NCBI GenBank assembly: GCA_963974105.1
Contig: CAXBBG010000001.1
Location: forward strand, 706,793-770,792
DNA from: an uncultured Magnetococcales bacterium
GTDB taxonomy: Bacteria > Pseudomonadota > Alphaproteobacteria > UBA2136
DNA length: 64,000 bases
Direction of reading: 5' to 3'
The position numbers and the translations under genes were made by a program. Positions 5,752 through 29,046 of this stretch are shown here, in pieces. Below the pieces are notes generated by a model that did not search any database, was not told the DNA's origin, and saw only the letters and a list, made by a program, of their open reading frames with translations. The stretch's first letter is position 1, and the number at the start of each line of letters is the position of its first letter.

Positions 5752-7455
5752 TTACCGTTCCTTATCTTCATACATGCCGTTATCAGCTATTTGTAGAAGG
5801 TCTTTTGCTGTTGTGGCGTCTGTAGGGAAGGTTGCTGTACCAATACTTACACCAATAGCTATATCTGTATCTACGATATTTGTTTTAAATGGCTTATTGA
5901 TGGCGGCCTTGATTTTATCTATGTAGAAGTTAGCTTTGTCTTTATCACATTTTATCAACACAACAAATTCGTCTCCGCCAATACGGGCAATTGTTGATGC
6001 TTTAGGAAGTGTAGCTGTTAAGCGGGTTGCCACTTCTTTTAATATTGCATCACCAGCTTCATGACCGTAAGTGTCATTTACAGGTTTAAATTTATTCAGA
6101 TCAAGGAAGAAGACTGTGAATTTAGCCTTGGATACTGTACCAGCTTTAAGGGCCGCCATGAAGGCTGTGCGGTTATCTAAGCCTGTTAATGCATCACTCA
6201 GGGCAACGTTCTGCCTAAACCTTCTTGAAACTTCTTGCGATATTTCTGAAACAAAAGCATCTCGACCTTTACCATCACGGATAACTTCTATTGCAGCTTC
6301 TGGAACATCTAAAAGTTCTGCAGCTGTTTTGACGCAGCCTTTGCAGTGTTCGATTGAGGCGATGACTGTTTCATAGTCGTCCATTCCGTGAGATACTTGG
6401 CGAATGGTTATATCCTCTTTTTGGATAGACATGGCACGTTTAATGTCATCCCAAAGTGAGCCTGTTCTTTCTTTCTTGACGGCGGTTCGTACGCGTAAAA
6501 AAACAGAAAGAGCAGATCCGAATGTAATAATAAAACATGCAATAAGGAGTTGATACCCACGTTCACCTTCAAACACACTTTCATTCTTAGAAAAAGCAGA
6601 TGTGAAGGATAAGAGCCATTCGGCAGCTAATGTTAATAAGGGTACAAATGCCATTAAAGCAATAATGTTATCCGACTTAATTTTATAACTCGCAGACCAA
6701 AAGAAATATCTATAAATAGATGATAGAAAAACGCCATACAAAAGACCTAACCAAATACTAGAAGGGTGCGCGTAGCGTGCAATGTCTGGGAAAAATGCTA
6801 AATACTCTGATTGCGGTAATACATATTGTTTGAATATTGAACCTATAATGGCAAATAGTAAAAACATCATACTTGTAATAAAGGAGACAAATCCAACAAC
6901 GCGCGCTTTATCACGCATATTACCACTTTCTTGAGCTTGTTCGGACTGTTTATGTGTTTCTGCAAAGATAACTTCTCCAGCCTGTACAATACCAGTTGCT
7001 AACGCTAAATAAAATATAACCCAAATAACGTCTCTGTCTTGAAGTGAGAAAAGGTAAGCTAGCCCAATACCTACAAAAACAAGCCCTATCAAGTCAGTTT
7101 TAGGTTGGGCGCGTTTAAAGAAGAATAAGGATGCAAGAAATGAAACAGGGATAGCAAATCTACCAAACAAGCTCATTTCTGTTGCGCTTACATAGCGCGT
7201 TAAGTAAACATCTAAAACAAATATGCCGATGGATGCAATGCCATAAAACCAAGTTGATGGGTTTTTTAATGTGTTTCCAACCAGTTTGCCTGGGCCAGCA
7301 AAAATTGATAATACAAGAGAGGCTGATACAATCGATATAGCTGCAAAAACAACAGCTTCTATATCAAAGTTCATAGAAGCAAAGCGAATGAGTATATTAA
7401 AGCAACTTGCTAGAATAACAAGTGTAAATGCTTGTAAAATTCCGGTTAAATACAT
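5752..7455 (-). CDS. membrane-anchored diguanylate cyclase (multi-TM N-terminus plus GGDEF domain), paralog 1
   Basis: The C-terminal GGDEF domain carries an intact RxGGDEF motif (ARIGGDEFVVLI) and DLNKFKPVNDTYGH. The N-terminal ~330 aa are hydrophobic. Confidence 0.85.
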   Translation of the reverse strand: MYLTGILQAFTLVILASCFNILIRFASMNFDIEAVVFAAISIVSASLVLSIFAGPGKLVGNTLKNPSTWFYGIASIGIFVLDVYLTRYVSATEMSLFGRFAIPVSFLASLFFFKRAQPKTDLIGLVFVGIGLAYLFSLQDRDVIWVIFYLALATGIVQAGEVIFAETHKQSEQAQESGNMRDKARVVGFVSFITSMMFLLFAIIGSIFKQYVLPQSEYLAFFPDIARYAHPSSIWLGLLYGVFLSSIYRYFFWSASYKIKSDNIIALMAFVPLLTLAAEWLLSFTSAFSKNESVFEGERGYQLLIACFIITFGSALSVFLRVRTAVKKERTGSLWDDIKRAMSIQKEDITIRQVSHGMDDYETVIASIEHCKGCVKTAAELLDVPEAAIEVIRDGKGRDAFVSEISQEVSRRFRQNVALSDALTGLDNRTAFMAALKAGTVSKAKFTVFFLDLNKFKPVNDTYGHEAGDAILKEVATRLTATLPKASTIARIGGDEFVVLIKCDKDKANFYIDKIKAAINKPFKTNIVDTDIAIGVSIGTATFPTDATTAKDLLQIADNGMYEDKER

Positions 7456-7664
7456 TAGCTAACCTTCCCTGTAAAAATGGCGAGCATGATAAAGACAGCT
7501 AAAACACCAACCATAAGTGCAATAGAAGAAGCCCAAGCGTAAATATCTGCCTGTGTGGCAGAGGAGATGATAAGCATGTCTTCACGGCGTTCATTTACAG
7601 TACGACGTTTAGGCTTATTTTTCCTACGTGCCGAGGAGGGGGTTGTTTGTTTTGTTTTTGTCAT
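7455..7664 (-). CDS. small basic N-terminus plus single-TM peptide, partner of DGC paralog 1
   Basis: The start was moved to the ATG that matches the paralog (MTKTKQTTPSSARRKNKPKRR…). The stop overlaps the DGC start, so the two genes are coupled. The paralog sits at 17338..17529. Confidence 0.5.
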   Translation of the reverse strand: MTKTKQTTPSSARRKNKPKRRTVNERREDMLIISSATQADIYAWASSIALMVGVLAVFIMLAIFTGKVS

Positions 7665-7760
7665 TGTTTGCCCTGATATTTGATTTACCATTTATAGTGT
7701 AAGTGTTTAGGTATAAAAATACAATCACAGCTTAACCTCGTTTACATATAAAAATATTGT

Positions 7761-8660
7761 TTATCGGTTTAAAACATCCAATAATAAAATTATCCCGATG
7801 GATATAATGGTCAGTGCGCCAAATAACTCTAGGAGGATATACCAAAAAGACGTGTTACTTTCTTTTGTGAGGCGGTCGATAACTTTTTTCTTGCCATAAA
7901 TGCAAATGGTACCAATGGAAATCATTGTAATGGCCATGCCAAGGGCGATGAATGAAACCATAAAAAGACCAAGCCAAAGCACGTCATATGCCATGGCATA
8001 AACAAGAATCAGTAAGGAACCTGTGCAAGGTACGGCGCCCACAGCCCATGATAAAATTGTTTCCTTTTTACTTTTGTGATGGTGCTGGCTGTTACAATGG
8101 CTGCAACTGTTCGCATGTTTGTCATTTTTTATCCATTGACGCATAGCTTGATAAAACATAAATAAACCGATAAAGCTAATGATGCTATAGCTCAATACTT
8201 TTGCCCAAAATACTTGTTGCTCTGGGTTTGTTAAAACATTTTTAAGGGTTAAATTTGCAATTAACACAATTAAAATGGCGCCGCCTACATGGCTTAAAGC
8301 TACTTGAACACCTACCCAAATACCACGTGAAATATGTGCGCCATTGGTTAAAAAATAACTGGCAACAACCATTTTTCCGTGCCCTGGGCCAAGAGTGTGG
8401 ATTATGCCATAAAGAAAAGCAGCAGCAGCGCTGGCAAAAACAACAGCCCATGAAGGGTTATCCTTTAACACCTTCATGCGTTTTGGTATTTCTCGGTTAA
8501 TAACAATGCTCCACTTGGTAATTTGTTTTTGCACAGAAGTGAAAATGGTATGAGACGAATTTGCTTGAATTTGTGTTTCGCTTGCATGCATAGAAGGCAA
8601 CGCATAGCTTTGCGAAATAGCTATAGCAAGTACAAAAATTAAGGTGGCGATCAATTTCAT
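7761..8660 (-). CDS. RcnA/COG2215-family nickel/cobalt transporter-like membrane protein
   Basis: The motifs HTLGPGHGK and GAVPCTGS parallel E. coli RcnA's HGLEPGHSK and GGLIPCPAA. A His/Cys-rich loop is present (CSHCNSQHHHKSK). Confidence 0.7.
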   Translation of the reverse strand: MKLIATLIFVLAIAISQSYALPSMHASETQIQANSSHTIFTSVQKQITKWSIVINREIPKRMKVLKDNPSWAVVFASAAAAFLYGIIHTLGPGHGKMVVASYFLTNGAHISRGIWVGVQVALSHVGGAILIVLIANLTLKNVLTNPEQQVFWAKVLSYSIISFIGLFMFYQAMRQWIKNDKHANSCSHCNSQHHHKSKKETILSWAVGAVPCTGSLLILVYAMAYDVLWLGLFMVSFIALGMAITMISIGTICIYGKKKVIDRLTKESNTSFWYILLELFGALTIISIGIILLLDVLNR

Positions 8661-9254
8661 TTAAGCTCCTGCGCAGTTGATTTTATATGTTTCAGGGTTA
8701 ACTAAACCACCATAGATCGAAATATTTTTATTTTCTTCTAATTCATATTTGCAAATGGCATGTTGAGGTAAGGTTAAGTCGTAACTTTGTTCAAAAGAAA
8801 TATAAAATTCTGGATCAAAAAAGCCAATATCATGTGTTCCGTTTATAGGTGCAGGTTGGTCGAGTATGATTGAAAATTGATAGTGTAATGTTTCGTCTTC
8901 AGCCATCCAAATTGTGGGGTTTTGGAATTTAAACGTGTGTGTTTTTCCGTTAAAACGCAAATATATAAATGGAAATAAAGATTCTGGATTTTCTTTGAAA
9001 ACAGTTTGAATTGCATATTCGGTTTCAGACTTTTCTAATTTCATGTTTTTGTTGAGGTCGGCGTCTTGTAAAAAAGCGACGCTGTATAATTCGTCAAATT
9101 TCCACAACACCTTTAAGCCTGTTATTTGGTTAGAATCTGTTAAAATTTCGACGTCGGTGTAAGCCCAAATATGTGGGTGTGCCTGCGCTACCTGCGCCGA
9201 AAATGTAAAAAGAAATAGAAATAGAAATTGTGTCGTTATTGACATGACGCGCAT
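8661..9254 (-). CDS. DUF1007-family periplasmic protein, the usual partner of COG2215 transporters
   Basis: A signal peptide is followed by an HPHIW motif at the mature N-terminus. It sits immediately upstream of and abuts the RcnA-like gene. Confidence 0.65.
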   Translation of the reverse strand: MRVMSITTQFLFLFLFTFSAQVAQAHPHIWAYTDVEILTDSNQITGLKVLWKFDELYSVAFLQDADLNKNMKLEKSETEYAIQTVFKENPESLFPFIYLRFNGKTHTFKFQNPTIWMAEDETLHYQFSIILDQPAPINGTHDIGFFDPEFYISFEQSYDLTLPQHAICKYELEENKNISIYGGLVNPETYKINCAGA

Positions 9255-9679
9255 AGCCCTAAAACTTCAATATTTGTTTCTAATGGTTTGAAATTTGATT
9301 TTTTAGCCGAGTTTTCAATGATGGAAGCTTGCTCCGAAAAATCAATTTCTTTAATTTCATGACAATTTGTACAAATTAAAAACTCAGAAATATGAGCTTC
9401 TTTGTGGGCATGGGTACAGGCAATATAAGCATTAATGCTGGAAATATGATGCGCTAAACCAATTTCTGTTAAAAATTCTAACGCACGGTAAGTAATGGGC
9501 GGTTGTTTATTTTCAATAAATTGCATAAGTTCTTTTGCTGTTAAGGCTTTGTGCGACGAAATAAGTGCCTCAAAAACTTGGCGACGGCTTTCTGTAAAGC
9601 GGTGGCTGTGCTTTTCACATAACATTTCTGCTGTTTGAACAGCTTCTATTTCACATTGGTGATGTTGTTGGCAACCCAT
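9236..9679 (-). CDS. Fur-family metalloregulator, Zur-like
   Basis: Fur fold with HxH and CxxC…CxxC elements (CTNCHEIKEIDF). I placed the start at MGCQQHH, where GGAGG sits 5 nt upstream, rather than at the track's longer N-terminus. The gene overlaps the DUF1007 gene start, so they form an operon. Confidence 0.8.
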   Translation of the reverse strand: MGCQQHHQCEIEAVQTAEMLCEKHSHRFTESRRQVFEALISSHKALTAKELMQFIENKQPPITYRALEFLTEIGLAHHISSINAYIACTHAHKEAHISEFLICTNCHEIKEIDFSEQASIIENSAKKSNFKPLETNIEVLGLCASCQ

Positions 9680-9712
9680 AAAAACTCCTCCATATTTCAT
9701 TTGACATCGTAG

Positions 9713-9750
9713 TGTTAATCTGTAACAAATGCAAATGTTAATTTTTAACA
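9713..9750. promoter_or_regulatory. two tandem Zur-box-like palindromes in the divergent promoter region
   Basis: TGTTAATCTGTAACA at 9713-9727 and a perfect 6-3-6 palindrome TGTTAATTTTTAACA at 9736-9750. Both lie between the fur-family gene and the divergent His-rich gene. Confidence 0.4.
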
Positions 9751-9793
9751 GAAACACCTCAATTTTTTACCCTTATTATTTAAGGAGCTCTTT

Positions 9794-10438
9794 ATGAAAA
9801 TAACTCAAATAACACCCGATGGCGTTATTTTATCCACTTTAGCGACTGAAGCATTTCAGAAAATGCGTCAACTGGAAAATAAAAACGACCCCAATCGAAG
9901 AAGTGACTTGTATGGCCCTTATGAAGCTGTATGGCTTGAACGTACTGGAAAATTGCCACCTGAATATTTTGAAAAGGATGACCCCAATCCGTGGAAACTG
10001 CTTGCTGATGAAGCACGCCGTAACATTTTATGGCAAGCGCTTTCGGGTTGCTTGGACATTAATACGCAGTGGGCGCTTGTGTATATTCAGTTGGTTATGG
10101 ATAAAGCTTTGAATGATGATGATTTTGCAAAAGAACTTGCACAGGTGAATAAGCAGTTTTTGCATAGCTTAGATCACATGCATGCAGGGCACAACACACA
10201 GAATCATATGAAGCATCACATTGGTCACATTGACTGCCCCGGCTGCTCTGCAACGGCCGCATTATTGATGATTGATCCTCAAATTCGTGCCCGTTTTGAA
10301 AAAGAGCTTAAAAATTTAAGTAAACTTTCCCCAAGCGATCGTATGGATATTTTAAAGCAAGAAGGTTTAGATAAATATTTAAACAGCACCATACAAAATG
10401 AAAAAAACGGCAAAATTATTTTGCCTGATAGCGTGTAA
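9794..10438 (+). CDS. His-rich putative metal-binding protein
   Basis: Sits divergent from the Zur-like operon. Contains the cluster HMHAGHNTQNHMKHHIGHIDCPGC. No signal peptide. Confidence 0.55.
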   Translation: MKITQITPDGVILSTLATEAFQKMRQLENKNDPNRRSDLYGPYEAVWLERTGKLPPEYFEKDDPNPWKLLADEARRNILWQALSGCLDINTQWALVYIQLVMDKALNDDDFAKELAQVNKQFLHSLDHMHAGHNTQNHMKHHIGHIDCPGCSATAALLMIDPQIRARFEKELKNLSKLSPSDRMDILKQEGLDKYLNSTIQNEKNGKIILPDSV

Positions 10439-10450
10439 TATATTTAAGAA

Positions 10451-10476
10451 GCCCTCAAAAATGAGGGCTTTTTTTA
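10451..10476 (+). terminator. Rho-independent terminator
   Basis: GCCCTCA-AAAA-TGAGGGC hairpin followed by a T7 run. Confidence 0.6.
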
Positions 10477-10492
10477 TGACCTATGGACGAAT

Positions 10493-10507
10493 TGTTAAAT
10501 TTTAACA
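10493..10507. promoter_or_regulatory. Zur-box-like perfect palindrome upstream of the 10571 cluster
   Basis: TGTTAAATTTTAACA, 6-3-6, about 64 nt upstream of the ATG at 10571. It has the same architecture as the boxes at 9713-9750. Confidence 0.4.
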
Positions 10508-10570
10508 TTTACAAATGAATGCGACTTGTTTATATTTTTATTAAATTTAAAATGAAAAGGGTTATCTATT

Positions 10571-11536
10571 ATGCGTGTGGCATTTGTTGCAAAAGGTGGA
10601 AGTGGTAAAACAACGGTGTCATCTCTTTTTGTGCGCTATGCTTTAAGTCAAGGCAAGCAAGTTACAGCAATTGACGGTGATATGAACCAACACTTAAGCA
10701 CAGCATTAGGTTTAAATTTAGATGCTTTGAAAATAAAAGATTTAGGTAACAATGAAGCGCGTTTGCGTGAACTTTTAGGTTCTAATCATGCTTATATTGA
10801 AGATATTAAACAAATGATAGAGTCTACACCTGCAGGTGAAGGGTCTCACTTGTTTACAAGTAATAGCTCAAGCCCTGTTTGGGACGAATTTTCTTACAAG
10901 CAAGAAAACTTACGCTTTTTAACCGCAGGTGCCTTTAAAAATGAAAACATGGCTGAAACTTGTTACCACACATACACAGGCGCTGTAACGATGTTTCTAA
11001 ACCACTTTATTGATCGAAAAGATGAATTGGTTGTGGTGGATATGACGGCAGGTTCTGACCCCTATACATCTGGTATGTTTAGCCGTTTTGATGCTGTTGT
11101 TTTAGTGCTTGAGCCAACATTAAAGTCTATGGCTGTTTATGATCAATGTATGCAATATGGTAAAGACTACGACATTCCGCTTTACGTTGTGGCGAATAAA
11201 ATTGAAGACAATTCTGACCTTGAATTTATAAAAGAAAAAGTAGGGGGTGACCTCATTGCATATATGGTTTCTTCTACCTTTATCCGTCAGCAAGAGCGAG
11301 GTGTGTGGCAAGATATTGATTGCTTAGAAATAGAAAATTTAAAGGCATTACACATAGTGCTTGAAAAAGTGATGGCAACACCAAAAGATTGGGATAAGTA
11401 TCAAAAATTTGGTGAAAAATTCCACCAAATTAAAGCAGAAGGTTGGGGCAATGCAATATATGGTGGAGATCTTATGAAACAAGTTGACCCAAATTTCTCG
11501 TATGCAAAAATAGCTAAAAGTATGGAGGCTTTATAA
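10571..11536 (+). CDS. MinD/ParA-superfamily P-loop ATPase, CooC-like candidate metallochaperone or maturation ATPase
   Basis: Deviant Walker A (KGGSGKTT) at the N-terminus. A DMTAGSD motif resembles the CooC D-x-AG-E motif. Confidence 0.6.
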   Translation: MRVAFVAKGGSGKTTVSSLFVRYALSQGKQVTAIDGDMNQHLSTALGLNLDALKIKDLGNNEARLRELLGSNHAYIEDIKQMIESTPAGEGSHLFTSNSSSPVWDEFSYKQENLRFLTAGAFKNENMAETCYHTYTGAVTMFLNHFIDRKDELVVVDMTAGSDPYTSGMFSRFDAVVLVLEPTLKSMAVYDQCMQYGKDYDIPLYVVANKIEDNSDLEFIKEKVGGDLIAYMVSSTFIRQQERGVWQDIDCLEIENLKALHIVLEKVMATPKDWDKYQKFGEKFHQIKAEGWGNAIYGGDLMKQVDPNFSYAKIAKSMEAL

Positions 11537-13002
11537 TGCTAGCGCACTCGGCAGAAAAGTCTCATCACAATGTGCCTACTTTAACGGCCAAGCAAAGTTT
11601 ACTTGTGCAGTCTTTGTTGCAGCATAAAAATGAACTTTTGCAAGCTATCCAAGTTTTACCAGAAGGGCATGTGCATGTGGTGCTACCACAGCAAATGAAA
11701 CAAAATATCTCTTGGATGCGCCAAGTATTTGGTGCATATGATATTGAGCCGCGTATATTTGTTTCTCACAAACCCAGTAAATCAAACGTGCTCATTAAAC
11801 AAGCCCGTGCTGAAAATACAGGATTAGATGTATCATCTAAAAATGAACTTATTTCTGCGCTTAAAAATGGTTTTTCTGGTCAAAAAATTTGCTGCACAGG
11901 TAGTAAAAACGAAGAATACCTTTCACTTTCCATTCAACAGGGCTGTTTGCATAGTTTAGATTCAATTGAAGAATTGGAACGATATATTGACTTGTGCAAA
12001 CAAATTGCGCCACATGAGCAACACAAAATTCTTTTGCGCATTAACAGTGCTGATGCGCCTTATGGTGGAAAAATGTCTCGCTTTGGTATTCCTGTAAATA
12101 ATTTAGAAACCTGCTTTAATTTACTGAAAGAGAACTCTAATGTGTACTTAGAGGGTTTTCATATGCATTCAGGTGAAAGCTCGGGTGAAATGCGTGCTCA
12201 GGAAGTAACTTTAATACTGCATTATATGCAAAGGGCGCATGCTCTTGGTTTTACACCTCATACTGTGAATATAGGCGGCGGGTTTCCACGTACTTTTTAT
12301 GAATCAAAGAGCGAGACAGAAGCTTTTACAGACTCTTTGATTCAATCATTGTCTACGAAAAAAGATATAACTTGGCGTGGGTATAGTTATGGGTTGTCAC
12401 TGACAGACAAAGGTGCTGTAGTCGGCAGAGCGGGGTTGGAAAGTCTGTTTAAATGTGATGACTTTGAATGCACCTTAAGGCAAATGCTTGATGCTGATTC
12501 TATCAATGCGTCAGTGCATAAAGTTATGGGGGAGTGTGGTTTTGATTTTATGATAGAGCCCGGGGTAAATGCTTATGACGCTTGTGGTGTAACTCTTTTT
12601 AAAGTGGTTGAAGTTCAAGATAAAAATAATCAAACATTAACGGTTTTAGACGGCAATAAGTATAACGTACAATTTGACCAAATTGAATATATGGCCGACC
12701 CAGTTTTGATTTCGGAAGATGAAATTGACAAGAAAAATGAAAGTTTTTCAACCTATCTTGTGGGGAATTTGTGTGCAGAATTTGATGTTATGGTGAAGCG
12801 TAAAGTTGTTTTAAATGGCAAGCCTAAGGCAGGTGATTATTTATGTTTTATGAATACAGCAGGTTATACAGCAGACTTTAACGAAACGTCTGTACATCAA
12901 CACCCAATAGGTCAAAAAATTGTGGCATTAAAAAAAGAAAACGGCTGGAAGTTTATGAGCGAAGACCGTTTTAACCCTTATGATCTTATAGAAAGGTTGT
13001 GA
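11536..13002 (+). CDS. type III PLP-dependent decarboxylase (Orn/DAP/Arg decarboxylase family)
   Basis: TIM-barrel N-domain with a conserved Lys region. The C-terminal beta-domain carries GNLCAEFDVM…MNTAGYTADFN, comparable to the GPxCESxD…AGAY motifs of that family. Confidence 0.65.
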   Translation: MLAHSAEKSHHNVPTLTAKQSLLVQSLLQHKNELLQAIQVLPEGHVHVVLPQQMKQNISWMRQVFGAYDIEPRIFVSHKPSKSNVLIKQARAENTGLDVSSKNELISALKNGFSGQKICCTGSKNEEYLSLSIQQGCLHSLDSIEELERYIDLCKQIAPHEQHKILLRINSADAPYGGKMSRFGIPVNNLETCFNLLKENSNVYLEGFHMHSGESSGEMRAQEVTLILHYMQRAHALGFTPHTVNIGGGFPRTFYESKSETEAFTDSLIQSLSTKKDITWRGYSYGLSLTDKGAVVGRAGLESLFKCDDFECTLRQMLDADSINASVHKVMGECGFDFMIEPGVNAYDACGVTLFKVVEVQDKNNQTLTVLDGNKYNVQFDQIEYMADPVLISEDEIDKKNESFSTYLVGNLCAEFDVMVKRKVVLNGKPKAGDYLCFMNTAGYTADFNETSVHQHPIGQKIVALKKENGWKFMSEDRFNPYDLIERL

Positions 13003-13006
13003 AAAA

Positions 13007-14323
13007 ATGATTTATAATTCTGTTATAGATATGATTGGTCAAACACCTATGTTAAAAATTCCAGCTGAGGTTCATGGATTAAAAAATATTGACGTGTACG
13101 CTAAGCTTGAATATATGAACCCTTATGGGTCGGTAAAAGACCGTATAGCTTACGGTTTGATGAAAGACCATATAGAAGAAATGAAACTAACAGGCAAAAA
13201 ACCTGTGATTGTTTCCAATGCAAACACTGCAAAAGCTGTGAGTTGTTTAAGCCATTATGTTGGTTTACAGCCTTACATTGTGAGCAATAAAATGCCTTAT
13301 AAAGAAGTACGGAATCAGCTTAAATTTCTAGGTGCTGAAATAGAAGAGTTACCAGCTTTAACGCAGTGCCCCAACCCTTTTGACCCAAATGATATGATTC
13401 AATATGCAGAGCGCATGGTTTCACAAAACCCAGAAAAATTTCATTTAATAGATCAGTTTGGTGACCTAAATAACCCTCAAATTCATTTTGAAACGACAGG
13501 TAAAGAAATTTACGAGGACTTAGGCGATGTCGATTATTTTTTTGCTGTTCTTGGTACCTCGGGCACAACGTTAGGTGTCGGGAATTATCTACGTGAACAG
13601 AACCCAAATACCAAAGTATTTGGTGTCATTACTGAAACAGGTCATAGTGCACCAGGGGGAAGATCGAAGAGTGAAATGTGGGAAGTGGGTATTTTTAATC
13701 CAGCCCATTATGACGAAATTATAGCGGGTACCAACCAGCAAGCAACGTTGGGTATGCGCGAACTTAACATGAAATGTGGGGTTATGTGTGGGCCAACAGG
13801 TGGGCTTGGTTATCATCGTATGCTTGAAAAATTGCGTGAAATTGACCCATCACTTGAAGGTGAAAAACGTTCTAAGGCTGTGTTTATCGCCTGTGACCGT
13901 ATGGAGCCTTATATGGATTACGTACAAAAAGCTTGCCCCGAATTTTTTGAAGAAAAACCAATCGAAAAATTACGTGTACAAACGCTGTCCATGCTTAAAG
14001 TGCAATATGCACCAAGTATAGATGCTCAAGGTTTGATGGATATGCTAAAAAGCGATAAACAACCACTCATTATTGATACACGCGGTGCTTTTGCTTACTC
14101 GATTAGTCATATTGAAGGTTCCATTAACATTCAGGACACATTTTTAGAGCAAATGCTAGACAATGGTAAGCCATTCCCTGAAGATCAGGTGATTGTTTTT
14201 GCCTGTATGAGGGGAGATGTTTCTACACGTTTTGCTGCTTTTGCTAAAGAGCTTGGTTACGAAGCTTACTCTTTAAGTTGTGGCGTGGGTGCTTTTGTTC
14301 ATCTGTGTCAGACAAAAACATAG
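13007..14323 (+). CDS. fold-type II PLP enzyme (CysK/SbnA-like) fused to a C-terminal rhodanese domain
   Basis: A PLP-lysine motif SVKDRIA lies near the N-terminus. The C-terminal ~100 aa form a rhodanese fold with active-site Cys (IVFACMRGDVS). Confidence 0.7.
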   Translation: MIYNSVIDMIGQTPMLKIPAEVHGLKNIDVYAKLEYMNPYGSVKDRIAYGLMKDHIEEMKLTGKKPVIVSNANTAKAVSCLSHYVGLQPYIVSNKMPYKEVRNQLKFLGAEIEELPALTQCPNPFDPNDMIQYAERMVSQNPEKFHLIDQFGDLNNPQIHFETTGKEIYEDLGDVDYFFAVLGTSGTTLGVGNYLREQNPNTKVFGVITETGHSAPGGRSKSEMWEVGIFNPAHYDEIIAGTNQQATLGMRELNMKCGVMCGPTGGLGYHRMLEKLREIDPSLEGEKRSKAVFIACDRMEPYMDYVQKACPEFFEEKPIEKLRVQTLSMLKVQYAPSIDAQGLMDMLKSDKQPLIIDTRGAFAYSISHIEGSINIQDTFLEQMLDNGKPFPEDQVIVFACMRGDVSTRFAAFAKELGYEAYSLSCGVGAFVHLCQTKT

Positions 14324-14433
14324 TGACTTAAATTATTTTTTTCTTGTGGGATATAGTGCATTTTGATACTAGTTATTTACTAAATTTCTTTATTTAGAAA
14401 CCATCTTTATCTTTTTCTTTCGAGGAACTTCCT

Positions 14434-15459
14434 ATGTGCGAAAAACACACAACGGGTGTTGGCCCGTATGCAACTCAAATGGGGTTTGACCAAAGTGCGA
14501 TTGATGCTTTGAAAAAACCATTCTTTAACACAGCGGGCGCATGCGCCTATTTTGATCTCGGAACAATTCCTAAAGACATTGCCCGTTGGGTTATACAAAT
14601 TGAAGTCTCTAAATTTGCATGCTATGTGCAAAATGCTCAAGGTGAAAAATCACCTATTCAAATTGAAGAAAATGGTACATCTAAAACTATTCAGCTTGCT
14701 ATGCCTGAAAACGGTGTAGATGCATGGATACATGATACATTACGCGACTACTTACATCTGCAATATGCGCCGTTAGGTGTTATTGCACCTTATTTTAACT
14801 TCGGTTTTCGTTTGTTTAATGAAGACGATAAACGTCATGGTTCTGTGCAGGTATTTGCTTTTGCGCATGCTGAATTGGTGACGCAATACGGTACTAACAG
14901 TCAAGGTTATCCAAATGTCCCTTGGACAGAAAAAGGCGGGTGCTGTGTGAATAAAGGTGTGGAAAAGTTAATGCCGTTTATGCAAAGCTTATCGGCTGAT
15001 AAACTGCGCCAATTGCCACAAAAACTATCGGGATCTATCTTGTATCGTTTCATGCCTATGGACGAAAGTATTGTAAATATATCAGCGTCTGCAAAGGCTG
15101 AAAATTGCATTACGCATTTGATTAAAGACGATGGTTCAAAAGTTGAAATAACAATGAAAAATGATGACGATAAAGACATATCTATTTCTCTTATGCATCC
15201 CATGTCTTGTTATGTTCATCCGCATATTCGTCAAATGTTACAGGTGTCTGATAAACCTTCATCTGCGCTTTTTAGAGAAACGTACGTGTGGGGTTTTGTA
15301 AATCATGACACACTTAAAGGTATGGTTTTTATGTGCTTAGCGCCTGAAAGAAATATACAGCCGGCAGCAGGTGATATGGAAGAATATATCCCTGAACCGC
15401 TTTTAATAGCAACGAATGGGCAGTTAGCAAAAAAACGCTGCCCTGCTTGTAAAAGCTAA
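14434..15459 (+). CDS. Cys-rich hypothetical protein
   Basis: 341 aa with no motif I recognise. It contains GGCCVNKG and a C-terminal CPACKS. It is the last gene of the cluster. Confidence 0.5.
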   Translation: MCEKHTTGVGPYATQMGFDQSAIDALKKPFFNTAGACAYFDLGTIPKDIARWVIQIEVSKFACYVQNAQGEKSPIQIEENGTSKTIQLAMPENGVDAWIHDTLRDYLHLQYAPLGVIAPYFNFGFRLFNEDDKRHGSVQVFAFAHAELVTQYGTNSQGYPNVPWTEKGGCCVNKGVEKLMPFMQSLSADKLRQLPQKLSGSILYRFMPMDESIVNISASAKAENCITHLIKDDGSKVEITMKNDDDKDISISLMHPMSCYVHPHIRQMLQVSDKPSSALFRETYVWGFVNHDTLKGMVFMCLAPERNIQPAAGDMEEYIPEPLLIATNGQLAKKRCPACKS

Positions 15460-15612: not shown

Positions 15613-17325
15613 TCATGAACTGTCCTTGTCTTCATACATATTCCCATCTGCGATTTTTAAAAGGTTTTTAGCTGTGGTGGCATCTGTTGGGTAGGTTGCT
15701 GTGCCAATGCTTACACCAATAGATATATCTGTGTCTACTGCACTTATTTTAAATGGTTTATCTATGGCTGTATTGATTTTATCTATGTATAGGTTAGCCT
15801 TTTCTTCGTCACACTTTATCAGCACAACAAATTCATCGCCGCCAATACGGGCAATAGTTGCTGTGTTAGGCAGCGTAGCTGTTAAGCGGTTTGCCACTTC
15901 TTTTAATATTTCATCACCTGCTTCATGACCGTAAGTATCATTCACAGGTTTGAACTTATCTAAATCAAGGAGAAATGTTGTGAATTTTGTTGCTTGTTTA
16001 CTTAATGATTTTATTTCTGCCATAAGTGAAGGCCTGTTATTTAAACCTGTTAAAGCATCACAGCTTGAAATATTACGTCTAAAACTTCTTGCCATTTCCT
16101 GTGAAGCATCCGCTGTTAGCGCTAAAGACCCTTTTGCTTCATAAAGTACAGTAATGGCATTTTTTGATATGCCAAGTAATTCTGATGCTTTTTCTTTGTC
16201 ATCTTCAGTATATTCTAACGTAGTTTGGATAATTTCATAATCATCCATAGCATTAGATACTTGCTGAATATTTGATTCTCCTCGCTTTACGGTGAGTGAT
16301 TTTTTAATAGTTTTTTTGAATGATTTAAAGTTTGTGATTTTTACGTTTTTTGTCAGCCTTAAATAAGCAGAATACCAAGCACCAGCTGCCATAATGAAAG
16401 TTAAGGCGAATAAGTAGATGCCTCTACTGCCATCGAATGTCATTTGGTTTGATTTGAATAATGGGTGGAAGGAAAGAAGCCACTCACAAGCAAGTGTTGT
16501 CAGGGGAATAATAGCAAGTACAGTTAGGACGTTTTCGGTCTTTATTTTATAGGTAGATGACCATTGGAAATAACGTGTAAACGGCGACAGGCATAGCCCA
16601 AAAATAAAGCCAGCCCAAATTGTTGGTGCATGTGTAAATTTTGATATTTCGGGTATGAATGAAAGTTGCTGCTTTAGTTCGGGTGTTAGCATATTCATTT
16701 TTATAAAACTTAAGCCAAGTGCAAGAATAAAGAATATCATGCTTGTAATAAAAGTTACAAAGCCAACGACACGTGCTCTGTCGCGTAAGTTCCCGGTTTG
16801 TTGGGCATTGACGGATTGCTTGTGTGTTTCTGAAAGCATAAAAACAACAGCCTGTAAAATGGCTGACAAAACACCTAAAATTAACACAGGCTTTAATGTT
16901 TCAATAGGCTGAAGGAATAAAACTCCTGTAAGTCCAACACACAAAGCAGCCACATTGAATAGGTCTGTTTTAACAGGTTTTCTGCTTAATAAAAGAAAGG
17001 CTAAAATAATAGAAACAGGTACAGCTATTCGGCTTAATACACTTAATTCTGTACCAGAAATATATTTAACGAGATAAATATCGACGGTGAATGTGCCCAC
17101 TAAAATGAAACCATAAAACCAAGTGGCAGGTGTTTTTAGAGTATCACTGACAAAGCGACCTGGGCCTGCAAAAATAGACAGTGTGAGCGCCGTCGCAATA
17201 AGATATGTGCAAGCAAATACGATAGGTTCAATATCAAACAATAAAGAGTTTACGCGAATGTAAACATTAAATAATGTTGTGATAACAACAATACCAAAGG
17301 CTTGAAGGACGCCAGTTAAGTACAT
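15613..17325 (-). CDS. membrane-anchored diguanylate cyclase (GGDEF), paralog 2
   Basis: Same architecture as 5752..7455, with colinear similarity along the whole length (ARIGGDEFVVLIKCD, DLDKFKPVNDTYGHEAGD). Confidence 0.85.
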   Translation of the reverse strand: MYLTGVLQAFGIVVITTLFNVYIRVNSLLFDIEPIVFACTYLIATALTLSIFAGPGRFVSDTLKTPATWFYGFILVGTFTVDIYLVKYISGTELSVLSRIAVPVSIILAFLLLSRKPVKTDLFNVAALCVGLTGVLFLQPIETLKPVLILGVLSAILQAVVFMLSETHKQSVNAQQTGNLRDRARVVGFVTFITSMIFFILALGLSFIKMNMLTPELKQQLSFIPEISKFTHAPTIWAGFIFGLCLSPFTRYFQWSSTYKIKTENVLTVLAIIPLTTLACEWLLSFHPLFKSNQMTFDGSRGIYLFALTFIMAAGAWYSAYLRLTKNVKITNFKSFKKTIKKSLTVKRGESNIQQVSNAMDDYEIIQTTLEYTEDDKEKASELLGISKNAITVLYEAKGSLALTADASQEMARSFRRNISSCDALTGLNNRPSLMAEIKSLSKQATKFTTFLLDLDKFKPVNDTYGHEAGDEILKEVANRLTATLPNTATIARIGGDEFVVLIKCDEEKANLYIDKINTAIDKPFKISAVDTDISIGVSIGTATYPTDATTAKNLLKIADGNMYEDKDSS

Positions 17326-17337
17326 GAATTTATCCCT

Positions 17338-17529
17338 TTATATATTCGATAGAATGATAAGTGTTGTTAAAACTGCGACCATAAAGGCAATAGATATAGC
17401 CCAAATGTAAATGTCACTTTGGCTTGCAGAGGAAATAATAAGCATATCCTCACGGCGTTCGTTTATAGGACGTCGGGTAGGTTTGTTTTTCCTACGCGCA
17501 GAGGTAGCTGTTTGTTTTGTTTTTGTCAT
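17338..17529 (-). CDS. small basic single-TM peptide, partner of DGC paralog 2
   Basis: Begins MTKTKQTATSARRKNKPTRRPINERREDMLIISS…, paralogous to 7455..7664. The 5' leader is also conserved between the two. Confidence 0.5.
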   Translation of the reverse strand: MTKTKQTATSARRKNKPTRRPINERREDMLIISSASQSDIYIWAISIAFMVAVLTTLIILSNI

Positions 17530-17734: not shown

Positions 17735-19099
17735 CTAAATTTTCCAGCTTCCCCCCATGGCTTTAAAAAGGTCTACAGATGAGGTTAATTTAGAAAGGCG
17801 GGCTTCGGCATAGTTATCTTCTGCAGATAATAGAGATATTTGTGTGTCTAGCAGCGTTGAGAAATCGATTGAACCCGCATCATAAAGTTCTTTAGATAAA
17901 GTGTAAGCACGCAATGATTCTTCCATGGCTGTTTGTAAAAACTCTTCTCGTTCTTGTGCAGATTTGACAGCCGCTAACGCATTCTCTACATCTTGAAAGG
18001 CTGAGTAAACGATTCCTCTATAGTTTTCAATCAATTCTAATTCTTTTGCTGTTGCTTGATCTAATTTACCGTTAAGCTGCCCGCCATTAAAAATAGGTGC
18101 GGTAATATTAGCTGCCAATGTTAAAACATTAGTGCTTAGTGTAGAAAAACTTGCAGCCGAAAATATGTCATCTACTCCAAGGGATATGGAGGGATATAAT
18201 GCTGACCGAGCAACACCAACATTGGCGTTGGCCGCTTTTAAATTAGCTTCGGCAGCTTTAATGTCGGGCCTACGTTTAAGTAAGTCTGACGGTTGAACAA
18301 CAGGAATGTTAGGTATGTTAATGGCAGTTAATTCTTTTTTATGCACATTAAAACCCTGTGGAGCTTTGCCTAACAAAATAGCTAAAGCATTTTTAGTGTT
18401 AATCCTTAATTCGACAATTTTTGAACGGGCAGCTTGGGCGTTTGCTACCAATGTTTTTTGTTGTGCTAATTCTAAATAAGAATCGACACCTTCATCTACA
18501 CGTACCTGTATAATATTTAAAACGTCGAGGCGGCTTAATAAATTTTTATCAGCAATTTCAATCCTTTCATTTAAATTTAACAGTGTGAAATAGTTGTAAG
18601 CAACATCGCCCATAATAACCAATTTAAGCGCTTCTTGTGCGTAGACGCTCGAAAGTAAATTGGCTTGGGCAGCGTTTTTCACCTCTTTATTTCCACCAAA
18701 TAAATCCAATTCGTAAGAAGCGCTTAAACCCGCACTTAAACGTTCATTTGTAAAGCTATCACCGTTATTTGAATTTGTTGAGGCTTGAGATATACCTGCA
18801 TTTATATCTAATGTTGGCCATAAATTACCACCTGCTAGTTTTACAGCCGCGCGTGACTGTGCAACAACTTGCATACCAGCCGTTATATCGGTGTTTTTTA
18901 ACAATGCTTGCTCTATTAATTCATTCAGCGTTGTGTCACCAAAGGTTTCCCACCATGATTGATCAGCGTATGCACCATGCTCTACATTAGAACCTTCCCA
19001 CGTTTTTGGTGTTTCAAAAGATGGTTCTATATAATTTGTTGATAAACTACACGCACTAAGCGTTAAAAAAGTTAAGGTGTTTATTAATATTTTTTCCAT
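17735..19099 (-). CDS. outer-membrane efflux lipoprotein (NodT/OprM/TolC family)
   Basis: Lipoprotein signal (LTLSACS). Two-repeat TolC-like architecture. It is the last gene of the macAB operon. Confidence 0.85.
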   Translation of the reverse strand: MEKILINTLTFLTLSACSLSTNYIEPSFETPKTWEGSNVEHGAYADQSWWETFGDTTLNELIEQALLKNTDITAGMQVVAQSRAAVKLAGGNLWPTLDINAGISQASTNSNNGDSFTNERLSAGLSASYELDLFGGNKEVKNAAQANLLSSVYAQEALKLVIMGDVAYNYFTLLNLNERIEIADKNLLSRLDVLNIIQVRVDEGVDSYLELAQQKTLVANAQAARSKIVELRINTKNALAILLGKAPQGFNVHKKELTAINIPNIPVVQPSDLLKRRPDIKAAEANLKAANANVGVARSALYPSISLGVDDIFSAASFSTLSTNVLTLAANITAPIFNGGQLNGKLDQATAKELELIENYRGIVYSAFQDVENALAAVKSAQEREEFLQTAMEESLRAYTLSKELYDAGSIDFSTLLDTQISLLSAEDNYAEARLSKLTSSVDLFKAMGGSWKI

Positions 19100-19109
19100 A
19101 AAAATTTCC

Positions 19110-21068
19110 TTATTCTGAACTTAATGCAACAACAGGGTCAAGGTGTGCTGCTTTTTTTGCAGGCAAGTAGCCAAATAAAATACCAGTACTAACAGCGCAT
19201 GTAAAAGCAAGCACGGCAGGCATAACTGAGAACATAATATCAACGCCGAAAAGAGATAAAATGTAAGATGAACAGAAACCTAAAACAACACCAATAATAC
19301 CGCCAATTGTACAAACCACAGAAGCTTCTATATTAAATTGCATCATAATGTCACGCCTGCGGGCACCCGTGGCCATGCGTACACCAATTTCTCGAGTACG
19401 TTCCACCACACTTACCAGCATAATGTTCATAACACCAATACCGCCAACCAATAATGATATGGCTGCCACTGCACCTAATAAAATTGTTAACGTGTCTTGT
19501 GTGGCGGTTGCCATTTCTAAAAATGATGCCGAATTTCTAACTCTAAAATCTATCGTTTGGTGACGATTTAATAAAAGTTCATTAATGTCATTTTCTGTTT
19601 GGGTGATTTTACTAACATCGTCAACTTTAATAGTAATACCATTTAAGTAATTTGACCCAAACAAGCGCCCCATACTTGTTGTGTAAGGCACCCATACGTT
19701 ATCATCTTGGTCGTTACCACCCTGGTCACTACCTTTTGTTTCCATAACACCAATAATTTCAAAAGGAATGTTTCCCAGTAAAATAAACTTACCTATAGGA
19801 TTTTGCTTTTCTGAAAAGAAAATATTTGTAACTGTTGTACCTAAAACAGCAACAGAAGCATAGGAATTCACATCTGATTCTGTAAAGAATGTGCCTTGCT
19901 TAAGCGCCCAGTCACGTGCTTGTGGATAACCTTCACCAACACCCTCAATGCTGCTGGAATAGTCAATGTTACCCATGCGCAAAGTTTTAGAACCACTGCG
20001 CTGAGGCACTACAACGCTAATGTTACTAATTTCATTTTTAATTGCTTTAGCATCGGCAGGCACCATGGTGGCTATATTGGAAGACCTTATGCCAGGCGCA
20101 CCAGGTCTAATACTTAAAATATTTGTACCCATAGAACTTATTTGGTCTAGCACATTTTGCTTGCTACCATTACCAACCGCTAGCATTGTAATAACAGCCG
20201 CAACGCCAATAATAATGCCAAGCAAAGTTAAAGCTGTGCGGAATAGGTTTACACGAAGCGCGCTTATAGCTGTTTTTACGGCTTCACTTACTTCAGCTAC
20301 AAGGTTTTCGGATCGGTCAATTTTTGATGATAATTTTTTGTGTGCGTTAGCAATGGCTATGCCTTCTCTGTCAATACCATTATCAGATTCAACTTTTCCG
20401 TCAAGAATGCGGATCATACGGCGTGCATGTTTTGCTACGTCTTCCTCGTGCGTAATTAATATAACAGTACGCCCTTGTTGGTTTAAGTCCTTCAAAAGTG
20501 CCATTACATCACCACTGCTTTGACTATCAAGTGCGCCTGTAGGTTCGTCGGCTAAAATAACAGGAGGGTCGTTAACAAGAGCACGGGCAATGGCAACCCT
20601 TTGCTGCTGACCGCCTGAAAGTTCAGAAGGTATATGATGTCCACGTGCGCCTAAACCAAGGTCGTTCAGTAATTTTTTAGCGCGCAATTCGCGTTCAGGT
20701 GCTGATAAACCTGCATAAATAGCTGGAATTTTAATATTGTCTTCAGCGCTTACTGTATTAAGTAAATTATAGCGCTGGAAGATAAATCCAAATGTATCAC
20801 GGCGCAAAGCTGCTAATTCATCGGCATCTAATGATGCGACATTGCGCCCCTGCACTGTATAAATACCGCCTGTAGAACGATCTAAACATCCTAAAATGTT
20901 CATTAAAGTGGATTTACCTGATCCAGATTGCCCCATAATGGCAACAAACTCACCTGGGTAAATTTCTATATTGACTTCATCAAGCGCCTTAACGACAACA
21001 TCACCTGTTTTGTAATAACGTGAAACATTATCAATTTTTATAAGTGGGGCATTGTTTTCTTTTGTCAT
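19110..21068 (-). CDS. macB: MacB-type ABC transporter, fused ATPase and FtsX-like permease
   Basis: Walker A (GQSGSGKST), ABC signature (LSGGQQQRVAIARAL), Walker B (ILADEPTGALD), then a permease domain with four TM helices. Confidence 0.9.
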   Translation of the reverse strand: MTKENNAPLIKIDNVSRYYKTGDVVVKALDEVNIEIYPGEFVAIMGQSGSGKSTLMNILGCLDRSTGGIYTVQGRNVASLDADELAALRRDTFGFIFQRYNLLNTVSAEDNIKIPAIYAGLSAPERELRAKKLLNDLGLGARGHHIPSELSGGQQQRVAIARALVNDPPVILADEPTGALDSQSSGDVMALLKDLNQQGRTVILITHEEDVAKHARRMIRILDGKVESDNGIDREGIAIANAHKKLSSKIDRSENLVAEVSEAVKTAISALRVNLFRTALTLLGIIIGVAAVITMLAVGNGSKQNVLDQISSMGTNILSIRPGAPGIRSSNIATMVPADAKAIKNEISNISVVVPQRSGSKTLRMGNIDYSSSIEGVGEGYPQARDWALKQGTFFTESDVNSYASVAVLGTTVTNIFFSEKQNPIGKFILLGNIPFEIIGVMETKGSDQGGNDQDDNVWVPYTTSMGRLFGSNYLNGITIKVDDVSKITQTENDINELLLNRHQTIDFRVRNSASFLEMATATQDTLTILLGAVAAISLLVGGIGVMNIMLVSVVERTREIGVRMATGARRRDIMMQFNIEASVVCTIGGIIGVVLGFCSSYILSLFGVDIMFSVMPAVLAFTCAVSTGILFGYLPAKKAAHLDPVVALSSE

Positions 21069-28980: not shown

Positions 28981-29046
28981 CAATTTACAGAAACATAAGA
29001 GTCAGAAACAAAAAAGATAAATTATTAAAGGTAATTATAAGTATAT

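Follow-up and report, generated by a model that had tools for sequence, protein, structure and literature searches.

A Zur-type-boxed gene island of an uncultured Magnetococcales bacterium encodes a CooC-class ATPase, a candidate zinc chaperone, and a putative sulfur-transfer and decarboxylation pathway

We analysed a 64-kb stretch of DNA (the window; ~38% guanine plus cytosine, GC) from an uncultured Magnetococcales bacterium (contig CAXBBG010000001.1, positions 706,793 to 770,792) and propose that its positions 7761-15459 form a Zur-repressed island, in which three Zur-type boxes control three units: a zur-DUF1007-NicO unit, a gene for a 214-aa protein (p214), and an operon encoding an ATPase, a decarboxylase, a CysM-like enzyme fused to a rhodanese domain and an orphan protein. 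An initial annotation, made from the DNA letters of the window, had singled out the last four genes (10493-15459) as a unit of their own. This delimitation was too narrow, since the 214-aa gene (9794-10438) and the zur-DUF1007-NicO genes (7761-9679) belong to the boxed unit as well. We read the island as a Zur-repressed module that combines a zinc chaperone of the CooC class with the synthesis of a sulfur-containing amine, and assign this reading, taken as a whole, a probability of about one half. Its parts differ in strength. The regulation and the existence of the module are well supported, and it is probable that the module is a conserved, Zur-controlled and zinc-linked one with a metal-handling ATPase, while its specific chemistry and role are put forward tentatively.

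To our knowledge, the routing of scarce zinc inside bacteria is largely unresolved, with COG0523 proteins as the only established class of chaperone and few of their clients known. The ATPase described here, which we call the CxH ATPase after its Cys-x-His motif, is a candidate for a second, widespread class of nucleotide-dependent zinc chaperone. The putative sulfur-transfer and decarboxylation pathway that accompanies it is conserved and occurs together with zinc regulators in at least six phyla, with bacteria of the Candidate Phyla Radiation (CPR), prevalent gut Clostridiales and cultivable Streptomyces among the carriers. Full-text searches of the literature found no description of a module of decarboxylase, PALP-Rhodanese fusion and CxH ATPase, in agreement with the earlier suggestion of an undescribed pathway. 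Whatever its product, the module is well defined and tractable, with clear cis-elements and cultured hosts.

Zur-type boxes and organisation of the island

The features of the island are as follows.

7761-8660, minus strand: metal permease of the NicO family, with a His-rich loop; closes the zur-DUF1007-NicO unit (Pfam NicO, 1.5e-13)
8661-9254, minus strand: DUF1007 protein, partner of NicO (Pfam DUF1007, 7e-28)
9236-9679, minus strand: Fur-family regulator, Zur-like, 147 aa, ATG at 9679 (Pfam FUR; NCBIfam Zur model)
9713-9727, no strand: putative operator box TGTTAATCTGTAACA, one mismatch, in the divergent zur/p214 promoter (counterpart at L002 4894)
9736-9750, no strand: putative operator box TGTTAATTTTTAACA, perfect (identical box at L002 4917)
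9794-10438, plus strand: p214, conserved accessory protein of 214 aa (homologues near the core genes in L002, L024, L035 and L029)
10451-10475, plus strand: intrinsic-terminator-like hairpin GCCCTC-AAAAAT-GAGGGC followed by T7, which would end the p214 transcript (read from the sequence; equivalent hairpin in L002)
10493-10507, no strand: putative operator box TGTTAAATTTTAACA, perfect 6-3-6 palindrome abutting the -35 element (conserved base for base in L002, including the flanking TTTACA)
10508-10536, plus strand: best sigma-70-like promoter, TTTACA-17 nt-TATATT (10 of 12 consensus positions; both hexamers kept in L002)
10571-11536, plus strand: CooC/MinD-class ATPase, 321 aa (CbiA/MinD P-loop, KGGSGKT; closest solved relative CooC1)
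11536-13002, plus strand: pyridoxal phosphate (PLP) decarboxylase of fold type III, 488 aa (Pfam Orn_Arg_deC_N and Orn_DAP_Arg_deC)
13007-14323, plus strand: PLP enzyme of the CysK/CysM fold (Lys44) fused to a GlpE-type rhodanese (Cys400) (Pfam PALP and Rhodanese)
14434-15459, plus strand: Cys/His-rich orphan, 341 aa (no Pfam or NCBIfam match)

The decarboxylase start overlaps the ATPase stop (TAATG), and the overlap of the DUF1007 start with the zur stop suggests one operon there too. All four open reading frames (ORFs) of the initial annotation are present and its domain calls stand, borne out by the Pfam matches, by the match to CooC1 and, for the orphan, by the lack of any family match. 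The region holds no riboswitch or other RNA element in Rfam and no compositional sign of recent horizontal transfer.

The perfect palindrome TGTTAAATTTTAACA ends 63 nt before the ATG of the first gene at 10571 and, as had been claimed, matches the boxes at the promoter of the Zur-like gene, exactly at 9736 and with one mismatch at 9713. The window has two exact copies of TGTTAA-N3-TTAACA, at 9736 and 10493, where dinucleotide shuffles lead one to expect 0.05. With up to one mismatch there are four sites against 1.06 expected, the additional ones being 9713 and 27719, of which the latter lies inside an ORF and was taken as chance. Boxes 9713 and 9736 sit between two divergent genes, that of the Fur-family regulator (minus strand) and that of p214 (plus strand). 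If the regulator were read from the GTG at 9757, which gives its longest ORF, it would include its own boxes; the ATG at 9679 is the start called on the duplicate public contig (L001). The regulator scores 86 bits with the Zur model and 38 bits with the Fur model, both under the cut-off (167 for Zur).

Quartet and palindrome also occur together in a relative. The metagenome-assembled genome (MAG) UBA2136 (L002) carries the matching four genes with two perfect boxes ahead of them (6040 and 6083), the second overlapping the -10 element, and its promoter of the 214-aa gene has a perfect box at 4917 and a two-mismatch box at 4894. When the intergenic regions of the window and L002 are aligned, the box and the elements TTTACA and TATATT are conserved and the remainder has diverged. 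This conservation of box, -35 and -10 appears to be the phylogenetic footprint of an operator overlapping its promoter.

The window box is a variant, by one base per half-site, of the canonical TGTTATAnTATAACA box, with the same 6-3-6 layout and five of six bases in each half-site. Canonical TGTTATAnTATAACA-type boxes are found at COG0523 and DUF1007 promoters in L092 and L094, and in the proteobacterial loci they are common to the promoters of COG0523, the FolE paralogue and DUF1007-NicO. In L094, two canonical Zur boxes, CGTTATAATATAACA and GGTTATATTATAACA, stand directly 5' of an operon of ATPase, decarboxylase, PALP-Rhodanese, methyltransferase and desulfurase, and like boxes occur at the COG0523 promoter and 5' of three accessory genes. 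In L092 they precede cobW (a perfect TGTTATAGTATAACA), fur/DUF1826 and DUF1007, and one lies 50 nt 5' of the ATPase. Non-proteobacterial loci have a different palindrome, TGCAAC-N3-GTTGCA, 5' of the CxH ATPase (L091 6954 and 14256, L033 5685, L009 5568 and 5596, L088 9022), and the znuA/fur promoter of L091 has the close variant TTGCAA-N5-TTGCAA; the former may serve CPR, Chloroflexi-like and other lineages as their Fur-family (Zur) operator. AT-rich palindromes of the TGAAA-N-TTTCA type lie just 5' of the ATPase in Actinobacteria (L097, L099) and may resemble actinobacterial Zur boxes. In Streptomyces a long palindrome precedes the decarboxylase. The relation to the canonical box, the footprint and the Fur-family genes and operators that accompany the module across phyla uphold the co-regulation that had been suggested for the window, in which Zur would be the protein that binds the boxes. 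We also observed a perfect TGAAAACCGTTTTCA palindrome at the end of the desulfurase gene of Streptomyces sp. NBC_01237 (L096 11538).

A CooC-class ATPase with a Cys-x-His motif

The first gene of the operon encodes a P-loop ATPase with a deviant Walker A motif, KGGSGKT, at aa 8-14 and a family-specific C-terminal helical extension of ~70 aa. Its best match in the PDB by sequence is CooC1 of Carboxydothermus hydrogenoformans (3KJE; E 1.6e-12, identity 23-24%), the nickel-insertion ATPase for carbon monoxide dehydrogenase (CODH). CooC1 is also the top Foldseek match (E 3.5e-12, TM-score 0.70 on the target) of an AlphaFold2 model with a predicted local distance difference test (pLDDT) value of 93. 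The two proteins share the deviant Walker A GKGGxGKT, and the Cys at the metal-binding Cys112 position of CooC is kept, but the ATPase family has Cys-x-His for Cys-x-Cys: C131-Y-H133 (10961-10969) aligns with the metal-binding C-Y-C of CooC1 (C112-x-C114). Neither C131 nor H133 varies in a first alignment, of 13 family members, or in a second, of 31 sequences. A further difference is the C-terminal helical domain.

The family comprises 972 homologues at E <= 1e-10, in Chloroflexi, CPR, Acidobacteria, Actinobacteria and others, many of which carry the JGI annotation 'CO dehydrogenase maturation factor'. Genes for CODH or acetyl-CoA synthase (ACS) (cooS/acs) were absent from the window and from the ~40 ATPase-carrying loci; the family is found beside fur, znuA, COG0523 and DUF1007-NicO genes or beside the PLP enzymes. 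With neither the CxC motif nor a linkage to CODH, the ATPase would work like CooC but stand outside the CooC family proper. Nor does it belong to MinD or ParA, scoring 25 bits against a cut-off of 202 for archaeal MinD (minD_arch) and 20 against 180 for ParA, with no min or par neighbours.

The initial annotation had treated the ATPase as an enzyme of the pathway. We find that the family is large and also occurs without the PLP enzymes, beside znuA and fur, which makes a metal-handling protein more likely. In Ktedonobacter robiniae, fur and znuA are divergent from a stand-alone ATPase. The same holds for fur in Doudnabacteria and in L091, where znuABC-fur lies 5 kb off. L092 is a textbook Zur island, with the order cobW, fur, DUF1826, FolE paralogue, NicO, DUF1007, ATPase and the DUF1007-NicO pair divergent from the ATPase. 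That the ATPase is specific for zinc we infer. Stand-alone CxH ATPases regularly have a gene for a ~130-aa KH_NucS_shadow protein directly 3' (L087 10105-10494, L088 10082-10474, L090 8031-8426, L091 8037-8420 and L097 8004-8414), which may be an alternative partner or client.

The COG0523 proteins (G3E family; ZigA, ZagA/YciC, YeiR, Zng1) offer the nearest functional comparison. Like the CxH ATPase they are nucleotide-dependent P-loop proteins of the SIMIBI class with a Cys/His metal motif, encoded in Zur regulons, and the two occur side by side or interchangeably beside the pair of decarboxylase and PALP-Rhodanese. They differ in that COG0523 proteins are G3E GTPases with a CxCC motif, whereas the CxH protein is a MinD/CooC ATPase with a deviant Walker A. 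As a separate observation, the CPR Paceibacterota locus L093 (4648-6583) has two tandem CxH ATPase paralogues ahead of the decarboxylase, an arrangement that suggests a heterodimer in this lineage.

The PLP enzymes and the fused rhodanese

The decarboxylase (PF02784, 4e-21; PF00278, 5e-8) has the full catalytic set of ornithine and diaminopimelate decarboxylases, including GGG at 247-249 and C413-x3-D417, together with a family-specific insertion that carries a conserved Trp. Residues K79, D98, R168, H211, G247-G248, E341, C413, D417 and Y444 are invariant in 13 members. With the LysA model (TIGR01048) it scores 95.7 bits against a cut-off of 298.

The PALP domain of the next protein (2.7e-44) has its Schiff-base lysine, K44, in the motif SVKDR, and its Asn loop reads SSGNTAKA in the family and SNANTAKA in the window. 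It scores nearly equally with the models for CysKM, CysM, SbnA, CysK, CBS and cysteate synthase and lies far under all cut-offs (cysKM 144 against 344, CysM 139 against 413, cysK 120 against 351). For the C-terminal half of the domain CysM is closest, and the PG(I/G)R loop is kept. The rhodanese domain (Pfam 1.8e-11, with a match to the GlpE model) carries Cys400 in ACMRGDVS, a six-residue loop of the GlpE type, CxxGxxS. The rhodanese fusion defines a separate clade, and 12 diverse members all keep K44, C400 and the PGxR loop unchanged. Beyond the catalytic residues, the two PLP enzymes show no obvious Cys/His metal site specific to them.

CysM accepts bulky sulfur nucleophiles, and MoeZ carries a rhodanese domain. 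Known CysM systems (CysM-CysO-MoeZ of M. tuberculosis, E. coli CysM with thiosulfate) resemble the PALP-Rhodanese protein in its C-terminal half and its PG(I/G)R loop, and the former takes its sulfur from a rhodanese-containing carrier, where the module has the rhodanese fused directly. The module differs in having no CysO, no ThiS-like carrier and no E1 enzyme. Cysteine is unlikely to be the end product, because PALP-Rhodanese is obligatorily coupled to the decarboxylase. Taken together, the features of the enzymes support, at the level of sequence, a beta-replacement in which the nucleophile is a persulfide bound to protein (or thiosulfate), with decarboxylation as the next step.

Two PDB entries that combine PALP and rhodanese domains, 8H4H and 8H4Q, were considered as relatives and set aside, as they scored like an ordinary CysK and dropped out when the C-terminal half was the query. 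They represent a solved 'Rhodanese domain-containing protein' of ~530 aa, PALP then rhodanese, and may show how such a fusion is arranged.

Distribution of the module and its neighbours

We fetched 80 metagenomic PALP-Rhodanese loci by family alignment, together with several genome contexts, and compared them by ORF calling and phmmer. The fusion has many relatives at 35-50% identity. Where it scores at least ~280 bits, a decarboxylase homologue lies immediately 5' in 27 of 29 loci, and in 20 loci an ATPase homologue lies 5' of the decarboxylase, often with overlapping stop and start codons. The trio of ATPase, decarboxylase and PALP-Rhodanese keeps its order in ~20 independent lineages, which include gut Clostridiales, CPR, Streptomyces and marine Proteobacteria. 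Distant PALP-Rhodanese proteins (~30% identity) are without decarboxylase, ATPase and desulfurase partners. Carriers include prevalent Clostridiales of metagenomes (one protein occurs in 140 collection blocks), CPR Paceibacterota, marine Tara contigs and, in culture, Streptomyces sp. NBC_01237 and BHT-5-2.

An Aminotran_5 gene, that is, a cysteine desulfurase, is adjacent in 15 loci. These desulfurases are mostly SufS/CsdA-like and are IscS/NifS-like in L015-L017, which suggests that two classes were recruited independently and hence that the need is a supply of persulfide to the rhodanese. An S-adenosylmethionine (SAM) methyltransferase gene lies 3' of the fusion gene in L006, L012, L013, L034, L093, L094 and L098; that of L093 matches the NNMT/PNMT/TEMT family of small-molecule N-/S-methyltransferases. 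The recurrence of both desulfurase classes and of methyltransferases of a small-molecule type strengthens the earlier idea of a sulfur-linked small-molecule route that could not be named.

Fur-family, COG0523, NicO/DUF1007 or HMA genes nearly always adjoin the module. Fur-family genes flank it in L003-5/7/8, L010/11, L032/33, L031/39, L093 and L094. Divergent COG0523/CobW GTPase genes lie directly 5' of the ATPase in L013, L022, L028 and L042 and between ATPase and decarboxylase in L037, and L039, L094 and L096 have canonical COG0523 genes, which include CobW_C, close by; L039 also encodes a NicO-like membrane protein. In L018-L025 (L025 5226-6485; also L018, L019, L020) a 419-aa protein with a C-terminal HMA domain takes the place of the ATPase. 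In soil metagenomes this protein, whose N-terminal part is unassigned, is encoded between desulfurase and decarboxylase.

Equally informative is what does not travel with the module. NIS (NRPS-independent siderophore) synthetases, nonribosomal peptide synthetases (NRPS) and opine dehydrogenases are absent from the window, as had been noted, and from all related loci examined, as are IucA/IucC, NRPS modules and CntL/CntM-type enzymes with a dedicated transporter. No exporter, importer, ligase or TonB receptor is conserved with the module in ~30 loci, and no genes for CODH, ACS, hydrogenase maturation or urease are conserved with it.

Some neighbours were seen in single loci. In the gut-metagenome locus L010 (1983-4400 and 10849-12468) the module ends in a fur gene with a methionyl-tRNA synthetase gene right behind it, and a leucyl-tRNA synthetase gene lies upstream; cysteinyl- and glutamyl-tRNA synthetase genes are nearby on the other strand in L006. 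The methionyl-tRNA synthetase could be a regulated paralogue of a zinc-binding tRNA synthetase or a coincidence. The aminoacyl-tRNA synthetases and other neighbours in L010 were rejected as members of the module, with which they are not conserved. Strain BHT-5-2 has a fusion with a flavin mononucleotide (FMN)-dependent dehydrogenase 5' of the decarboxylase (L098 5632-7350), and NBC_01237 a pyridine-nucleotide-disulfide oxidoreductase 3' of the core (L096 12387-13667).

The orphan and p214 proteins

The 341-aa orphan has an MCEKHTTG N-terminus, the motifs GGCC and HPMSCYVHPH and a C-terminal CPAC. All of its relatives start with MC[ER]KHTTG, end in KKRCPAC and share GGCC and HPMSCYVHPH. Relatives are rare, with only 3-4 in protein sets of 5.8 billion and 1.84 billion. 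A HMMER search over the 1.84 billion representatives gave one further true relative, P0124, and another hit, P0125, was discarded as a spurious repeat protein. In a species-level collection the sole genome with a relative is MAG UBA2136 (64% identity). The orphan gene lies directly 3' of PALP-Rhodanese in all three lineages with known context (the window with its duplicate record L001, L002 and L095), where other loci have a cysteine desulfurase, alone or with a methyltransferase. Its position and context lead us to regard it as an accessory of the pathway specific to these lineages, and it may be the sulfur donor. Neither the orphan nor p214 matches Pfam up to E=10 or NCBIfam, and the AlphaFold2 model of the orphan on its three-sequence alignment was unusable (pLDDT 33).

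Homologues of p214 share the motifs DDPxRR..GPYE, ILWQALSG and CPxCS, and the protein also has a His-rich stretch. Since L002, L024 and L035 encode such a homologue directly 5' of the ATPase, and L029 encodes one just 5' of the core, the 214-aa gene belongs to the module. A further family, MC[KR]FHKDVA.AVAT, is found 5' of the ATPase in proteobacterial versions (L024 3665-4792, L035 3506-4207, L094 4171-5040); in L094 the next gene encodes a small membrane protein whose tail is rich in His, and in L024 the gene before encodes a DUF2946 protein. Kinship of the orphan with these 'MC[KR]FHKDVA' proteins (L024, L094) was rejected (hhalign probability <=0.2%).

A proposed mechanism and its alternatives

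We propose the following scheme. The ATPase would act as a CooC-class nucleotide-dependent dimer in which Cys-x-His has taken the place of the Cys-x-Cys site, so that the dimer interface would likely form a Cys2His2 site for Zn(II), and would serve as a low-zinc metallochaperone alongside or in place of the COG0523 GTPases. Persulfide sulfur would be loaded onto Cys400 of the rhodanese, in other lineages by the adjacent cysteine desulfurase and in the window by the orphan or by a desulfurase encoded elsewhere. The CysM-like PLP domain would form an aminoacrylate from an activated serine and capture the bulky sulfur nucleophile to give a C-S bond, after which the fold-III decarboxylase would strip the alpha-carboxylate to leave either an aminothiol or persulfide of the cysteamine type or a thioether diamine. 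This product might then be N- or S-methylated in other lineages. Substrate, order of reactions, identity of the product and its role are thus all predicted. The product would be an intracellular zinc ligand, or a hand-over partner for the chaperone, rather than an exported chelator, a preference that follows from the lack of any conserved exporter, importer or ligase. The chelator that the initial annotation had considered is not indicated for the same reason.

If CxH ATPases are chaperones, a family of about a thousand members, reaching from CPR to Streptomyces, would stand in Zur regulons in parallel to COG0523. If the product is an aminothiol, the module would achieve the direct enzymatic synthesis of a cysteamine-like N,S ligand in carriers that include abundant human-gut Clostridiales; and if that aminothiol binds zinc, metal homeostasis would gain a metabolite of a new type and the rhodanese-fused cysteine-synthase fold a new biosynthetic use. 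The full form of the proposal, that CxH ATPases are the first zinc-dedicated metallochaperones of the MinD/CooC class and that the module makes an undescribed persulfide-derived aminothiol for intracellular zinc mobilisation or hand-over, is speculative, and we think it the less probable outcome.

Several points weigh against the scheme. The Fur-family regulators of Firmicutes loci score higher with the Fur and PerR models than with Zur, which leaves them unassignable to the Zur, Fur or PerR class, and the neighbours in L003 are oxidative-stress genes. Binding of zinc by Cys-x-His is predicted from the alignment with CooC1. The enzymes occur without the ATPase in L006, L012, L023 and L034, and the ATPase often occurs without the enzymes, so that functional coupling between them is one of association. 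The window has neither the desulfurase gene nor that of the methyltransferase, and the local pathway may therefore differ. Unless there is something special about the acceptor or the product, it would seem wasteful to spend the sulfur of cysteine on a cysteine-like compound. With no transporter or ligase conserved, the intracellular role of the ligand is itself a guess.

Other explanations can be set against the scheme. The island might hold a zinc-sparing replacement or a chaperone-client system instead of a ligand pathway: either a zinc-independent route of sulfur transfer, replacing thiocarboxylate cysteine synthesis by a ThiF/MoeZ-type E1 and the JAMM hydrolase Mec+ or SufU-dependent transfer, or a set of enzymes that are metallated by the ATPase or COG0523 when zinc is scarce. 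Zur regulons typically contain zinc-independent paralogues and chaperone-client pairs (Haas et al., 2009; PMC2770081), in an account where CooC appears only as an outgroup. The module does stand in classic Zur islands, together with COG0523 and a gene of the FolE family (GTP cyclohydrolase I); joining a CysM-like domain to a persulfide carrier would bypass CysO, MoeZ and Mec; and no exporter is conserved. CPR genomes are small, so that finding the module in one of them (L093) would speak for a core function. Yet neither the conserved decarboxylase nor the methyltransferase, frequent as it is, has a part in supplying sulfur for cysteine or Fe-S clusters, remaking cysteine from cysteine sulfur would be futile, and the PLP enzymes lack an obvious metal site of their own, so we regard this explanation as rather unlikely. 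A departure from zinc would explain other observations, namely a Fur-, PerR- or Nur-type response to iron, nickel/cobalt, peroxide or reactive-sulfur stress, in which the enzymes serve persulfide handling or metal-sulfur cluster assembly and the ATPase acts like CooC on a Ni/Fe centre. The CPR regulators share the better Fur/PerR scores of the Firmicutes proteins relative to the E. coli-type Zur model, the neighbours of L003 include desulfoferrodoxin and MarR-GSHPx-thioredoxin reductase genes and those of L006 [FeFe]-hydrogenase-like genes, NicO proteins are classically Ni/Co transporters, and CooC is a nickel chaperone. Against this, the window regulator scores best with the Zur model, the proteobacterial boxes are of the canonical Zur type and shared with the promoters of zinc-island genes named above, stand-alone ATPases adjoin znuA or znuABC, none of the nickel-enzyme or hydrogenase-maturation genes is conserved, and the change from CxC to CxH extends across the whole ATPase family; a system that is not zinc-specific is improbable.

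The initial annotation had compared the PLP pair with SbnA and SbnH of staphyloferrin B synthesis in Staphylococcus aureus, from which a diaminopropionate- or ethylenediamine-type block for a secreted metallophore would follow. At superfamily level the comparison is sound: both systems pair a CysK-fold beta-replacement enzyme with a fold-III decarboxylase in a metal-starvation operon, the pairing under Zur-type control is real, and SbnA is among the matching models. Zur-regulated metallophore operons are known, among them cntKLM/cntOLMI for opine metallophores and aesA-D for [S,S]-ethylenediamine disuccinate (EDDS), and the Zur-regulated aes operon of Amycolatopsis japonicum combines SbnA/SbnB-like with DAP-decarboxylase-like enzymes. 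These too are small biosynthetic operons, and zinc starvation derepresses them. The likeness ends in the details. The SbnA score (TIGR03945, 123.7 bits against a cut-off of 350) is exceeded by those of CysKM and CysM, the C-terminal half is nearest CysM, and control is of the Zur type, not by Fur. No locus has SbnB or another ornithine-cyclodeaminase-like gene, and the module has no NIS synthetase, NRPS, nicotianamine-synthase-like enzyme, opine dehydrogenase or dedicated exporter or importer, nor a TonB receptor, conserved across the ~30 loci. The fused rhodanese and the recurrent cysteine desulfurases, which the Cnt and EDDS operons do not share, speak of sulfur rather than nitrogen chemistry. 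We consider a secreted metallophore quite unlikely. That the genes are simply housekeeping minD, lysA and cysK beside a chance palindrome is effectively refuted. The window is AT-rich, so that AT-rich palindromes are not rare, and the three domains are common. All three equivalog scores, however, are far under their cut-offs, no minC/minE or dap/cys genes lie nearby, gene order is kept across phyla together with metal genes, and the box is conserved and duplicated in L002 where the flanking DNA has diverged.

Genes surrounding the island

Elsewhere in the window, an RTX-repeat protein is encoded at 4598-5563, a ShlB/FhaC-type two-partner-secretion transporter followed by a 1190-aa ORF at 27280-32619, and a 2050-aa ORF at 50808-56960; no relation of these to the module was seen. 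A MacA-MacB-TolC-type tripartite efflux system (HlyD-family adaptor, ABC/MacB_PCD/FtsX and OEP proteins) lies on the minus strand at 17735-22255, just past the second of two GGDEF genes. It has no associated box and is not conserved with the module. The island itself is flanked by paralogous gene pairs on the minus strand (5752-7691 and 15613-17529). In each pair the first gene encodes a GGDEF protein that passes the membrane several times and the second a small protein. The GGDEF proteins have 567 and 570 aa and are 50% identical; the small ones, of 78 or 63 aa, have a similar basic N-terminus. GC content is even throughout this flanked region. The pairs may stem from an old duplication into which the island was inserted, or around which it was assembled.

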